DNA of 24,458 nucleotides from positions 1 through 24,458 of the IMG/VR virus record IMGVR_UViG_2534681662_000014; one strand, given 5' to 3'. A program made the position numbers. Each line of letters starts with the position of its first letter. Positions within the stretch are counted from its first letter, which is position 1. This DNA is from a virus (Duplodnaviria; Heunggongvirae; Uroviricota; Caudoviricetes). Below are positions 3,001 through 9,000 of this stretch, piece by piece.

Positions 3001-6000
3001 TGAATAATTCATAAGCTTCGCGTTCATCTGGTTCTACTTCCAGAGATAGGAGTGCGATTTCATAAGCACGGCGCTCAATATCGTCTCGCACGTCAAGGCT
3101 GCTGATACGCTCTTTAATTTCTTTAATCAGTTCTTTGTCGGTAAAAGTGGTCATTATGCTCCAGCCTCCGGTGCTTTTGGCATTACTGCCCAGTGAGTGA
3201 TATTGACGTTTTCAAGGTCCCCGACCTGAAATGTCCACTGCCATTCTCCGGTTTCTTTTTGTCCCCAGGTGTACCAGAGAGAACGCCAGCCAATTAGCCA
3301 GCCTTCTCCGTTAGCATCGAATAACAAAACACTTTCATTTGCTGGTGGCAGTTCAGTTGACACTGGTATTACTTTGTTTTCCTGTGCTGCACATTTAGCT
3401 TCAAGCGCATCGAATTTACGCACTAGGTATTCAGCATCTGTTTCATTTACTTTCAGATCTCGCGGTACACATCTCCCACGAAGAAACCCTTCCATTTCGA
3501 AAACATTCATGCGCATTTGCGTAACTCCGATAACTCGTTAAAGCGTTCCATAAACATCCCGTAGGCATGGCCCGGAGCCAGTGGAATCACGTTGAACATC
3601 TCTGTTGCCGGGATACCTTCCAGTACAGGCCAGAAAGAGCCATCATCAAGCCCGAGATCGCGGCGTTCGGTTGCCAGCATGATGAGATCGGCATATTTCA
3701 CGGGCGTACTCATAACTGGGGGTAACCCGTATTTCTCACGGATTACGGCGTCTATTTTTTCTTCCATTTGTTTATAGTCAGGAAGAAGGCGTTTCAGTGG
3801 TGCGGGAATGTCCTGGCAATACGCTTCTGTTGCATCATGCATTAACGCTTCAAAAGCAAATTCCTGCGGCACCAGCTGGCTGCAAAGAACCGCATGTTGG
3901 GCGACGCTGTAGAAGTGCGAAAGATGGCCGGCAAAGCGACAGATATTTGAAAGGGAAACCGCGATATCGTTAATATCGATGTCGTCTTTATTTATCCTGT
4001 CATAATAAAAATGCTTCCCGGAAAAAGTTTTAATAAATGACATTTTGTTCTCCACGTATATGCGCTGCACCGCGCTGAATTCTGGTAAAAAGAATCCCTC
4101 ACCATCCGGCGATTATTGAGTAAATTACGTTTCCATAAATGCCCCCGCAGGGGCATTTGCAGTAATGAAATCAGGCGGTGAAAGTACCAATAAAGGTTTC
4201 TACTTTGCTGTCCTTGAATTTCTCAACAAGCAGATCACGAAATTCGTTAGCCATTTCTTCCTGCACCGCCTCCAGCTGAATAATGCGCAGAACCAGTACA
4301 GGACGATCGCCAGTGATAATACTGAGGCGTAATTTAAACGGACGTTCTTTCAGACCTTCAAACGGAACGCATTTAAATTCAAATGCCACTGGCATAATGT
4401 CTTTGGTCTTCGCTTCGACAGACTCCATCAGGGAGCGTTTGCCGCTGAAGTCATTATCTTCAAAATCAGCGGTCTGGTTTGCTTCAATCGTGATTTTACG
4501 GACAGCCGCAGCCGCTTTTGTTGCCTGAATAGCGTCACCATTAGCATCAAAGCCCACAAGATAGTCGGCCCAGTCTTCAATCCATTCTGCCAGTGACTTC
4601 TGGGAGTTACGCTCGCCGTTAACAGACAACAGAGCAGAGAACGGTGCTGTCTTTTTCAGTTTGAGTGTGGCGGTGTTATCTGCGTGACCTGGTTCATCAA
4701 TAGTACCCAGGTTAAGCACACTGACGGCACGCATATTATCAGCATCGATAAAGCAGCGGGTGCCTTCATCTGCAAGATCTTTAGAATAACGGGTAAAGTC
4801 ATCGATGCTGGCAGTGGAAAGCGCACCACGGAAACGGAAGCGATTTAAATTAAATTTTTCCAGATCATGAATGCGGAAATTCTCAGGCAATGCCACAGCA
4901 TCGGCACCAATCTTACTGATAATTTCATTAACACCCTGAGCAGAAATAAGGGCATGGATTTGATTAATTGCGGTTGCGTCTAAGTTCTGAGACATAATAA
5001 GTCCTCACTATATAAAGATATTCAGTGATGAGATAAATAATCAGTTAATTAAAAACGATATTAACGACCTGCTGCGCGGAGTTTTCCGTCAGGTTCACCG
5101 GCAAGAGTCAGTAACTGTCCCTGGTCTTCCTGCAGAATAGTCAGGCGACCACCGCGATTGACATACATCGGCGTTTCGGTGGTGTCTTCTTCGGAAATTT
5201 TCCCGCGGTTAGTCGGGCGAACATATGAGAGTTTGTGTTTGATTTTCACTCGGTTCTCATCAAACGGTTCGATTTCCAGGTTGAGCGAGACCTTACCTTT
5301 GGTTTTCGTGTTCATCACACCGGAAGCGACTTCACTGAGAACTGCGCCGATTTTGGTTTCAAATACGCCGCCGTCCAGCTCCCCGATAAATGCCTGCACA
5401 TCAGTACTGCGTTCGCTAGCCATTTTGCTGCTCCTCATCATATCGACCCTGCAAGGTCGGTTAGTTTCTCCACAAAACAGAGAAGAACACCTGCGGTGAC
5501 TGCCGCCCGGATGGATTGGGTTATGAGCCCGTCGTCCGGTGATGCTCTTCTCTGTTTTGTAAAAAGGACGGTACCAGCCGGAAGCAAGGGTACAAGCTGG
5601 TACCGCCAAGACTACACACAGCATAAAGTTGTGGTGCCGGGTGCCTCCCGGTGCCTGGCGAAGGTTGCACACCAGGCGGGTGGGTATCCACAGAAGGTCG
5701 ACTGTCAGCCTCAACCTTAACCCGCGTGCGCTGAGCCGCATTCACCACAACGCTAAGGATTCTCTCTGGTTGAAAATACTTAGCTGTTATGTGCCTGCTT
5801 TTAGCCACATCAGGCGAGGTGGACCTAGTTATTCCCCAACAACAAGGATTCGGTTAATCTGGTTATCCCCAACAACGCAAAAGGAAAAGAAATGTCCGGT
5901 AATATCTATACGCTGTACAAATCCCACTGTGAAAATGTTGGAAAGTATCGGGGCATTGAAATCAGTGGGGTAGTGTCATCAGTCGAAATAAGCAAAGTTG

Positions 6001-9000
6001 AATCAAGGGCAACATTACTTACTCTTTTGGACCTTGTCTTACATGAGCACCGGAAGAAATTCGGCACTCCCTATAATCAGTTGAATGGGAAAAAGGCTCT
6101 GGTTCACCTTATTCTGATGAAGCATCACTGGATGCCAAAACAGATTAATGAGATGAAATTTGATGAACTTCTTCTTTCAATTCAGGATGAACTCACACTT
6201 GATAAAATAAGCGTAACCGCCCAGAAATTTTTAGATTATCGAGACTGGAGATCACAAATTCATCACTTTGATGATTTTGACGAAAATGAATGGGATCCTA
6301 ATTTGTCTGCACAATATCTAAAGTAACATCCTGTGATAAAACCGTGATTTCCTGATCCAGTTTTTTTAAGGAGTCTATTGTTTCCTGTCGATAAGACAGC
6401 ACTTCACGAAGCTGGTTTATAGCTGCCAGCTTCTTTGTCATCCACTCATAAATTTCCTCATCTGTGTAGCCAGGCGCGACGATTTTGGGTTCTGTTTTGT
6501 GCATTTCACATCTCCTCAAGTTATCAGTTACTTGTTGATGGGGACCAGATTCTTAAAGAGCTAAGCGTCCTGTAGGGCGCTTTTTTGTTGCTAACGAATC
6601 ATCCTGGACTTCATATGCCCCAGGCGGCTACTTCGTGGGCGTCCTGCCTGTTCGTTATCTTTGATATAAAATCTAACTTAACTTAGTTATTATGGCAAGA
6701 GAAAACACCAAACTTTTCTTAGTTCGGTGCCTTAGTTAGAGAAGAGAGGTCTTAGAGTTCGTATTGAACTCCTTTGACTACACCAATGATAAGGCAATTA
6801 CCATTGATAGGGATGTTGGGATACCGAGGATTTAATGGCACTAAAAACTTTTGAGGGCCATCGATGACTAATTTTTTTACTGTAGCTTCGTTTGTTCCAT
6901 CAAGTCGAGCGATGACTATTTTTCCATGACGAGGTTCTGCATCTGGATCTACAATCACTGTTGCGCCTTCTGGTATTGTTGGGAGGCCATTAGGGTTAGT
7001 CATGGAGTCACCTTTAACCTCTAATGCAAATGAGTTATCACCAATCTTTAATGATGTATCTACCCACTTGTCCACTTCACTAAACACTTCTGCTGCCCTG
7101 CACTCAGTAAACTGCCCAGCCTGAACCCACGATATTACAGGAACTCTGCGCATGTTTGTGACGAGTTTGCCTTCAAACTCAGCACCATAAAGAATGTAAT
7201 CTATTGACGTATTGAAGAACTTCGCTAATTTCGAAAGTGCCTCCCCACCAGGGGTATTGATGTCTTTCTCCCAGTACCCCACAGCAACGTCGCTTACTCC
7301 ACAAAATTTACCCAATTCTTTCTGGGACGTTCCGGTAACTCTTCTCAGAGCTTTTATACGCTGACCAACCGTTTCCATAGGAGCACCATTTCTTGAATTG
7401 CTAAGTAATCTTAGTTTTTATTGACCAAAGATAGATTTGTAATTAGCATCTAATAAAACTTAGTTTGGAGGGCGTATGACAACTGACGATATCGAAAGCT
7501 ACTTCGGCAGTATTGAGAAAGTTGCTGCTTTTTTCGGCATAACAACTGAAGCCGTTTATCAGTGGCGAAACCGTCCGGGCCAGTTAATTCCAAAAGGACG
7601 TGCAGCAGAAGCTGCATATAGAACTTGCGGACGGTTGCCATTTAAACCTGAGCTTTATGAAAAATCTAATGGATAAATCGATTAACAGAAACCACAGAAC
7701 GATGAGGCTAACCGTGGGTAAGCATCACTGGAAAGTAGAAAAACAGCCTGAGTGGTACGTGAAAGCTGTCAGAAAAACTATCGCAGCGTTGCCGGGGGGT
7801 TACGCTGAAGCAGCTGACTGGCTGGATGTAACAGAAAACGCATTATTTAACCGCCTTCGTGCCGATGGCGATCAGATTTTCCCGCTGGGATGGGCAATGA
7901 TTTTGCAACGTGCTGGTGGAACTCACTTCATTGCTGACGCTGTGGCGCAGTCTGCAAATGGCGTCTTTGTGTCTCTTCCTGACGTCGAGGATGTGGACAA
8001 CGCCGATATTAACCAGCGCCTGCTGGAAGTCATTGAACAGATTGGCAGTTATTCCAGACAGATTCGTTCGGCAATCGAAGACGGTGTGGTGGAACCGCAT
8101 GAGAAGACAGCAATTAACGACGAGCTGTATCTCTCAATTTCGAAGCTGCAGGAGCATGCAGCACTGGTCTACAAAATCTTTTGCATTTCAGAAAGTAATG
8201 ACGCCCGCGAGTGTGCAGCTCCGGGCGCCGTGGCGTGTCGTGACTGTGGAGAAACTAACGCATGAACAGTTTAACAACACACTACCGTCGCTCGCAACTG
8301 ATTGCGCTTCCTGTACCGGGTGGAAAAGCGAAGGTGGAGTATTGCTATGCAGTTAATGTACCAGGTGACAGGGAAATTGTAACCCACAGCTTTGCTGAGT
8401 GGGCTGTGGGTGATTTCAACCGGCAGAAGGAGACAGTCCTTTGCGACAAGTTAACCGCTGGTTCAAAGATCACTACGGAGTGCCCGTCAGAGTCATTCGT
8501 TGGGAGCCGGAAACACAACGAGTTATCTACCTCCGCGAAGGCTATGAGCATGAGTGCTTCAGCCCGCTCGAACAGTTTCGTCGTAAATTCAGGGAAATAG
8601 AGGTCGGTCATGAGCACTAAATTAACCGGCTATGTATGGGATGGTTGCGCTGCATCAGGCATGAAATTATCCAGCGTGGCAATTATGGCCCGCCTGGCTG
8701 ATTTCAGTAATGACGAAGGTGTGTGCTGGCCATCAATTGAAACCATTGCCCGCCAGATTGGCGCGGGAATGAGTACCGTCAGAACGGCTATCGCACGGCT
8801 GGAAGCAGAAGGCTGGTTAACACGTAAGGCGCGTCGCCAGGGTAACCGCAATGCGTCGAATGTTTATCAGCTTAACGTTGCGAAGCTTCAGGCAGCGGCA
8901 TTTTCTCAACTGTCAGATTCTGACCCGTCAAAATCTGACGCATCAAAATCTGACCCGTCAAAATTTGATGCGTCGAAATCTGGCAAAAAAGCGGGTTTTC

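Follow-up and report, generated by a model that had tools for sequence, protein, structure and literature searches.

An ECs1072-family gene opposed to the predicted early-left transcript of an SfIV/SfV/e14-like prophage of Escherichia coli: a candidate superinfection-exclusion or abortive-infection gene

SieB (superinfection exclusion B) is an abortive-infection type protein of Rac, P22 and lambda. It is encoded by a single small gene (approximately 160 amino acids (aa); PHROG 6399) that runs against the early-left genes and lies between these and the repressor, and in Rac a small convergent gene, ydaF, abuts its 3' end. The same placement is seen for the subject of this report, a 144-aa gene on the plus strand of a 24,458-nucleotide (nt) stretch of virus DNA (IMG/VR record IMGVR_UViG_2534681662_000014, positions 1 to 24,458; hereafter, the window), which contains the early region of a lambdoid Escherichia coli prophage resembling SfIV, SfV and e14. 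SieB possesses hydrophobic membrane segments, whereas the 144-aa protein is hydrophilic, soluble and helical. Rac SieB matches PHROG 6399, whereas the window protein matches PHROG 5286 only, and the two share no sequence similarity. The correspondence is one of position and orientation only, and membership of the SieB family was rejected.

The interval from the repressor to N is a common site of accessory genes, among them rexAB of phage lambda and bstA of Salmonella prophage BTP1, both of which are transcribed in lysogens (PMC7067206; PMC8585504). Like the 144-aa gene, these are accessory genes within the mosaic repressor/early-left region. However, bstA and rexAB are co-transcribed with cI from the cI promoter, whereas the 144-aa gene is found on the opposite strand, beyond the candidate early-left promoter (PL) and left operators (OL), with a leader and terminator of its own, and neither BstA nor RexAB shows sequence or fold similarity to the 144-aa protein. 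BstA also has a built-in self-immunity element, a precedent for a prophage neutralising its own factor at induction.

A homologue of the gene has been described in Salmonella prophage ST64B. This gene, STMMW_20121, is reported to have its own promoter, to be antisense to the lytic genes and to be transcribed in lysogens in almost all conditions; it was among three candidate accessory loci highlighted and was termed 'accessory or regulatory' (Owen et al. 2020, PMC7067206). It shares with the 144-aa gene its family (141 bits on the family profile; 32% identity over residues 52-143), its length, its orientation against lytic genes and a convergent YdfC-like partner (Sb50/STMMW_20131), but its place is an apparent PR'-tR' interval, with Q on one side and the holin gene on the other, whereas the 144-aa gene adjoins the candidate PL. 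In the early-left operon of Qin-like phages, ydfC is located just after the repressor and is followed by dicF and dicB (PMC5069750). The window resembles this ydfABC-dicF-dicB arrangement in possessing a YdfC homologue and a DicF/STnc100-like element on the same strand, in the order repressor, ydfC, small RNA (sRNA), and differs from it in that the reverse-oriented 144-aa gene separates the ydfC-like gene from the sRNA-like element.

The 144-aa gene is an immunity-region accessory gene of a catalogued family and not a new kind of system. Its layout supports a reading as a moron of this prophage. Because its closest analogues by position and behaviour are sieB, rexAB and bstA, it is tentatively proposed here that it may encode, most likely, a lysogen-expressed cytoplasmic superinfection-exclusion or abortive-infection factor, which would be silenced by head-on transcription from PL at induction.

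The gene, its cassette and the candidate early-left promoter

The initial annotation had recognised no family for the protein. It does belong to two catalogued, uncharacterised ones: NCBIfam NF033230, the ECs1072 family (157.8 bits versus a cut-off of 70, E 1.7e-46; residues 4-144 on profile positions 2-142 of 142), and PHROG 5286 (unknown function; full-length match, 1-144 of 144, 302 bits, E 1.5e-90). The protein has a mass of 16.9 kDa, an isoelectric point of 6.4 and a grand average of hydropathicity of -0.47, and is soluble and all alpha-helical. It is under purifying selection, with a ratio of nonsynonymous to synonymous substitution rates (dN/dS) of 0.225 against a 72%-identical orthologue of Escherichia albertii. 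An exhaustive HMMER search of 1.84 billion cluster representatives identified only 76 of the family, nearly all of them single-domain proteins of approximately 145-155 aa. An AlphaFold2 model built with a 47-sequence alignment is all-helical (predicted local distance difference test score 94.7, predicted template modelling score 0.89). Together with the model, these data indicate a real, conserved accessory-gene product with what is predicted to be an orphan fold. In the same alignment W134 is invariant, and otherwise only L50, R54, L64, G66, A69 and H72 reach 90% conservation.

The stretch RDWRSQIHH near the C-terminus had been suggested, speculatively, to fit loosely an Rx4-6H motif of HEPN type. 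This did not hold, as R117, R120, H124 and H125 vary even among close homologues: the counterparts in homologues of 72-52% identity are LDWRSQIYH, CGWASQVHH and KDWESMTLS. With this stretch unconserved in the 47-sequence alignment and no HEPN protein among the structural neighbours, membership of the HEPN ribonucleases was rejected.

The gene, its signals and its neighbours are as follows.

5892-6326, plus strand: ECs1072-family gene, ATG open reading frame (ORF) of 144 codons (RefSeq WP_000016389.1, "ECs1072 family phage-associated protein")
5881-5885, plus strand: AAGGA (Shine-Dalgarno sequence, identified by direct reading), with 6 nt between it and the ATG
6298-6504, minus strand: YdfC-family partner gene, 68 aa (PHROG 1744), with Shine-Dalgarno sequence GAGGAG at 6512-6517
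6408-6433, plus strand: strong hairpin within the partner gene (-15.6 kcal/mol, z -4.3, weak U-tract)
6563-6588, plus strand: one-directional intrinsic terminator, with an 8-bp stem and 4-nt loop (6563-6582), then the U-tract tail UUUUUUGUUG
5061-5741, 4171-4995 and others, minus strand: genes to the left of the 144-aa gene
6752-7378, minus strand: cI-type repressor (HTH_3 and Peptidase_S24 domains)
7476-7676, plus strand: cro-like gene, followed on the plus strand by a cII-like gene

A plus-strand 144-aa gene with a ribosome binding site amid minus-strand genes had been reported in the initial annotation, and the ORF, the AAGGA sequence and the strands of the neighbours are all present as described. 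So are the two upstream direct repeats: the 11-nt sequence TCCCCAACAAC occurs exactly twice, at 5833-5843 and 5866-5876 (by chance, approximately 0.16 such repeat pairs are expected in the 1151 nt scanned, by estimate). The plus-strand terminator, earlier placed at 6564-6586, was found as the hairpin at 6563-6582 plus the U-tract. It folds well on the plus strand only (-11.5 kcal/mol), the reverse strand being weak (centroid -3.9) and lacking a U-tract, and should therefore stop plus-strand transcripts and let minus-strand ones pass. A transcript running antisense across the whole 68-aa gene had also been expected. That gene does lie between the stop codon of the 144-aa gene and the terminator; the stronger hairpin at 6408-6433 could end or pause part of the plus-strand transcripts early.

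Over bases 5700-6700 the window matches phages Kati and vB_EcoS-569R4 at 99.7% identity, Shigella phage SfIV at 98.3% and several E. coli chromosomes at 100%. Comparison of the window by blastn with 15 related loci (L-numbers below) defined the borders of a variable cassette.

5877-6544, no strand: variable cassette of 668 bp, with the 144-aa gene and the convergent YdfC-like gene
5823-5876, plus strand: common leader of the plus-strand cassettes, with both copies of TCCCCAACAAC; presumed promoter or 5' untranslated region

The GC content of the cassette is 39.2%, compared with 52.3% for the left flank and 48.8% for the prophage. At least eight unrelated gene families fill this slot, six of them on the plus strand (the ECs1072-family gene included) and two on the minus strand. 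The left flank is kept up to 5876 in loci L005-L007, L009 and L010, to 5862 in L011 and to 5885 in L008, all of which possess unrelated plus-strand cassettes, but only to 5822 in the loci with minus-strand cassettes and in L013 (81 aa, plus strand). Likewise, the right flank is kept from approximately 6545 in the plus-strand group and from approximately 6592 in the minus-strand loci and L013. The leader (5823-5876) and a terminator segment (6545-6592) are therefore common to the plus-strand cassettes and absent from the minus-strand-cassette loci and L013, and from the alignments they look like a common expression frame for swapped genes.

The other plus-strand cassettes encode a 171-173-aa coiled-coil and zinc-ribbon-like protein, a 167-aa protein, the 81-aa protein, a 170-aa secreted protein with weak similarity to LprI, and a 159-164-aa protein with two transmembrane segments (L008 1453-1947; L009 1487-1966), for which similarity to Rac SieB is marginal (29% identity over 116 residues, pairwise E 0.026). 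The minus-strand variants possess SfV orf33 or a gene for a small helix-turn-helix protein. Of 5426 complete E. coli genomes, 1936 possess the slot flanks and 407 (approximately 7.5% of the total) the cassette of the window. The moron layout suggested in the initial annotation is thus borne out and extended to a swappable, low-GC cassette with a common leader and terminator, whose flanks enclose other families elsewhere; the differently filled slot, the terminator and the atypical base composition are those of a moron.

Two candidate recombination sites at the slot were rejected. An imperfect 20-nt inverted repeat (75% complementary; 5856-5875 and 6532-6551) brackets the cassette almost at its junctions, but it is at chance level (8-nt seed; by estimate, approximately 10 such pairs are expected in the region). 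For the other candidate, ACYTAGTTA at 5823, no enrichment was seen. Beside the slot, locus L015 encodes a 296-aa BRCT-domain protein (2215-3105, plus strand) matching the PADLOC candidate family PDC-S48 (E 3.9e-7).

Further candidate elements of the early-left region were identified beyond both junctions of the cassette.

6670-6698, minus strand: candidate PL (TTGCCA, 17-nt spacer, TAGATT; promoter scan), overlapping the operator-like palindrome at 6673-6686
6673-6737, no strand: candidate OL operators, with CTAAG-N4-CTTAG-like sites at 6673-6686 and 6709-6722 and an extra CTTAGTT at 6731-6737
5558-5781, minus strand: STnc100-like prophage sRNA element in the conserved left flank (full-length match to Rfam RF02076; 43.4 bits, below the gathering score of 47; E 3e-8)

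The heptamer CTTAGTT occurs six times in the window compared with 2.1 expected, and five of the six copies lie within 6682-6737 and 7410-7465. Matches to CTAAG-N4-CTTAG with at most two mismatches are located at 6673-6686, 6709-6722, 7401-7414 and 7450-7463, with one further match in the window. The palindromes at 7401-7414 and 7450-7463 lie between cI and cro, and operator-like motifs cluster on either side of cI only, the arrangement expected of OL and OR. From exactly 6657 onward, the window departs from prophages that possess another repressor (SfIV, SfV and others), as would be expected of an immunity module that includes OL. PL and OL are therefore inferred to be to the right of the cassette, with the cassette directly downstream of PL. 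Given this placement, the 144-aa gene would be antisense to the early-left transcript, which would cross the 68-aa gene in sense, then the 144-aa gene in antisense, and then the left flank.

The STnc100-like element has a weak DicF-like hairpin nested inside it (5566-5620) and overlaps the 226-aa ORF at 5061-5741, so part of this ORF may be RNA rather than protein; RefSeq splits it into yfdP and a 'frameshifted' pseudogene.

Homologues, the convergent partner and expression in lysogens

Relatives of the 144-aa gene were identified in prophages of Shigella, Salmonella, Klebsiella and Serratia (in the search for distant homologous loci, the genome scan gave 3 loci and the viral scan 80 near-identical copies). 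They occupy several prophage positions, and wherever a prophage-borne homologue could be placed, it runs antisense to the lytic genes around it.

PL-proximal: E. albertii (L020); metagenomic loci L021 and L117
Between Q and holin: ST64B; Klebsiella KPP5665-2; Serratia quinivorans; L116; L118
Between cII and O: Sp4, a prophage of E. coli O157 Sakai
After kilR, in the kilR-repressor interval of a Rac-like prophage: L104-L106

In K-12 Rac the equivalent place between kilR and the repressor is held by sieB, in the same orientation and with the small convergent gene ydaF abutting it. A megablast search with the Rac-like locus L104 gave no match among E. coli genomes, so that this comparison with sieB is one of gene order only. 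In L104 the ECs1072 homologue is followed by a 96-aa ORF (4678-4968, plus strand), which by eye looks like a truncated second copy of the family (GIDGFDAVYLYLCEKHNWTIEQCRSM...LPPEA).

The 68-aa partner is convergent with the 144-aa gene, and the 3' ends of the two overlap by 29 nt (6298-6326). It shows 41% identity over 66 of its 68 residues to YdfC-family proteins of the Qin-like phages Evi, Tritos and PPompW, and both its position after the repressor and its PHROG match those of YdfC in Qin-like phages. A convergent YdfC-like partner, usually overlapping the 3' end, was found in nine of 14 ECs1072 contexts (called at 36-45 profile bits in L116 and L117, at a pairwise E of 2e-5 in Serratia and, weakly, at 14 bits in Sp4). 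The other five, including the Rac-like and chromosomal contexts and L118, have none. Eleven phage-database records possess an Sb50-type partner: eight with a full ECs1072-like gene, two with a remnant and one with neither. On these comparisons the pairing is frequent and old, yet not obligatory, and no earlier description of a recurrent convergent YdfC-like partner of the ECs1072 family has been met by us.

Two observations concern the overlap of such pairs. A perfect 12-nt palindrome (CTGGGATCCCAG or TTGGGATCCCAA) is located in the gene overlap of the ST64B, Klebsiella and Serratia pairs, where both genes, reading it from opposite strands, have Trp-Asp-Pro. The window retains TGGGATCC at 6291, and its partner gene ends just before this.

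L109, 3245-3256: palindrome site
L110, 3245-3256: palindrome site
L018, 5389-5400: palindrome site

In Sakai, an unannotated ORF (L115 19168-19677, plus strand) is convergent with ECs_5703, with an overlap of approximately 317 nt. It possesses the YdfC-like N-terminal motif GLSDVELAEWL and scores only 14 bits on the partner profile.

Evidence of expression comes from relatives. ST64B (L109, AY055382) contains a 144-aa ECs1072-family ORF at 2845-3279 on the plus strand, which is unannotated in GenBank and overlaps sb50 by 71 nt. In strain D23580, STMMW_20121 (2090066-2090500, 435 nt) lies beside the holin gene STMMW_20111, and its overlap with STMMW_20131 (360 nt) is likewise 71 nt; on this identical geometry it is equated with the ST64B ORF. 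STMMW_20121 reaches 60-270 transcripts per million (TPM) in 16 of 17 conditions (Owen et al. Table S5, PMC7067206), and expression of its partner STMMW_20131 amounts to 23-258 TPM (PMC7067206). Among the values retrieved from the same source, those of the Q gene STMMW_20141 are 2-7 TPM and those of the holin gene 0.3-33 TPM (PMC7067206). The ECs1072 transcript of Sakai is detectable and growth-phase regulated (microarray table, PMC2241611).

In ST64B, a near-consensus promoter (3602-3575, minus strand; TTGAAA, 16-nt spacer, TATGAT) is found directly after the Q-like gene, and a terminator (2760-2741, minus strand) immediately ahead of the holin gene; the two signals enclose sb50 and the antisense ECs1072-like gene. 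The resemblance of these signals to PR' and tR' suggests that the gene pair is inside a constitutive PR'-tR' interval, which would explain the expression of the partner in this prophage.

Possible functions of the 144-aa gene

Under the exclusion or abortive-infection reading, cI would close PL in the lysogen and the 144-aa gene would be transcribed from the common leader, its product acting as a functional analogue of SieB, RexAB and BstA, whose genes hold equivalent positions. At induction, head-on transcription from PL would pass through the YdfC-like gene and then run antisense over the 144-aa gene, silencing it, and the YdfC-like partner may oppose or aid the 144-aa protein during the lytic growth of the prophage itself.

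Several observations weigh against this proposal. A promoter scan identified no consensus sigma-70 promoter upstream of the gene on the plus strand, although the leader is conserved, and for the homologue STMMW_20121 a promoter has been mapped and expression in lysogens reported. The 144-aa protein has no match in Pfam or in a PDB sequence search, and with this protein, its 68-aa partner and the left neighbour as queries, no family of PADLOC-DB 2.0.0 was hit at E <= 1. The initial annotation had looked to structure prediction and structural comparison for a lead. The helical model proved confident, but no relative of its fold was found in the PDB or BFVD and no mechanism is hinted at. The alternative cassette proteins likewise show no significant PADLOC or Pfam defence match and all fall in PHROGs of unknown function; as no cassette in the slot significantly matches a PADLOC defence model, guilt by association with known defence genes was rejected as an argument. 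A conserved catalytic pair, R54/H72, was also considered. The eponymous Sakai ECs1072 (now ECs_5703; 42.8 bits on the family profile) lacks both residues, which weakens this candidate and makes a conserved catalytic dyad unlikely. Transcription of the ST64B partner in lysogeny means that the idea of an antidote made only in lytic growth does not apply to all prophage positions. YdfC-like genes are common in early-left regions in their own right and occur without an ECs1072-family match in 19 of 25 phage records, Qin-like phages included, so part of the pairing may reflect position and not function, and two homologues lie in apparently non-phage chromosomal settings, without a partner and beside small stress-type genes. 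A literature search for ECs1072 and WP_000016389 (and for Sb50 by titles and abstracts) found no paper on the function of the family: ECs1072 appears in a microarray table only, and WP_000016389 was found in no paper.

Much of the evidence is shared with another explanation, in which the protein serves lysogenic conversion or regulation rather than defence and modulates host physiology or the lysis-lysogeny decision of the prophage itself, such as through contact with a host or phage protein. Expression and layout speak for it equally, as does a small, helical, soluble protein without catalytic signature, and the chromosomal homologues beside stress-type genes, the growth-phase dependence of the Sakai transcript and the term 'accessory or regulatory' given to STMMW_20121 are all in its favour. 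It is nevertheless possible rather than likely: no specific host target is indicated, such rapid cassette swapping is seen more typically with conflict genes, and positional equivalence to sieB, and to rexAB and bstA, favours exclusion. That the 144-aa and YdfC-like proteins form a toxin-antidote (addiction-like) pair, one inhibiting growth and the other neutralising it, with antisense control added by the convergent overlap, is doubtful. The convergent overlapping pair is kept at three prophage positions at approximately 22-37% identity for the large protein and approximately 14-18% for the small one, the transcript levels of the two ST64B genes in lysogens are similar, and the sieB/ydaF pair of Rac has the same geometry. 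Against this, the partner is missing in five of the 14 contexts and YdfC-like genes often occur without ECs1072; the window partner lies behind a repressed PL and so would not be made in the lysogen. Type II toxin-antitoxin systems are co-transcribed operons, whereas these genes are convergent and form none, and neither protein shows similarity to a toxin or antitoxin family.

The plus-strand RNA itself could instead be the functional element, a cis-antisense brake on a leaky PL and on the YdfC-like and STnc100-like products, the ORF being secondary. The 144-aa gene is head-on to PL here and to the apparent PR' in ST64B, one leader and one terminator are common to unrelated plus-strand cassettes, as though transcription of this strand were itself of importance, and a prophage sRNA-like element adjoins on the other strand. 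Yet the gene is under purifying selection as a protein, its length and confident fold are kept across 76 divergent clusters, and homologues also occur outside such promoter contexts, all of which shows that the protein itself is selected and leaves the RNA explanation very improbable. The exclusion or abortive-infection reading might also be taken further: the ECs1072-like protein and its YdfC-like partner could constitute an unrecognised two-gene prophage defence module with self-immunity, and the slot, in SfV/e14-like prophages, a hotspot (comparable with those of P2/P4) of exclusion factors encoded by small single genes. In such a module the orphan-fold protein would block superinfecting phages in the lysogen, and the partner together with the antisense transcript from PL, PR' or PR would turn it off when the resident prophage goes lytic. 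This extension is unlikely.

If the 144-aa protein is an exclusion or abortive-infection factor, it would represent a new, very small single-protein defence family, and the interval between PL and the early-left genes of SfV/e14-like prophages would be a compact and easily mined hotspot with at least seven other uncharacterised families, five of them on the same strand. A recurrent partner and a head-on orientation towards PL, PR' or PR suggest a simple way to restrict expression to lysogeny. Without an anti-phage phenotype, the link of NF033230 with the lysogen-expressed STMMW_20121 and the unannotated ORF of ST64B would still be of use. The exact cassette is carried by 407 of the 5426 E. coli genomes, yet the predicted fold of its protein has no detectable relative.

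Remaining features of the window

A tRNA gene (1369-1441, plus strand) adjoins the integrase gene (1459-2622, minus strand) and is the likely attachment site of the prophage. At the other end, beyond the antiterminator Q gene (12583-12963), the window shows no lysis or structural genes, and either the prophage is truncated or a large cargo follows Q. The window past Q contains genes for a lipocalin (13119-13643, minus strand) and a 2-thiouracil desulfurase-like protein, IS1 and IS66 transposase genes and a ProQ/FinO-like gene. These are accompanied by genes for a 1296-aa SPATE-type autotransporter protease (19425-23315, minus strand) and a K88-like fimbrial subunit (23354-24265, minus strand).

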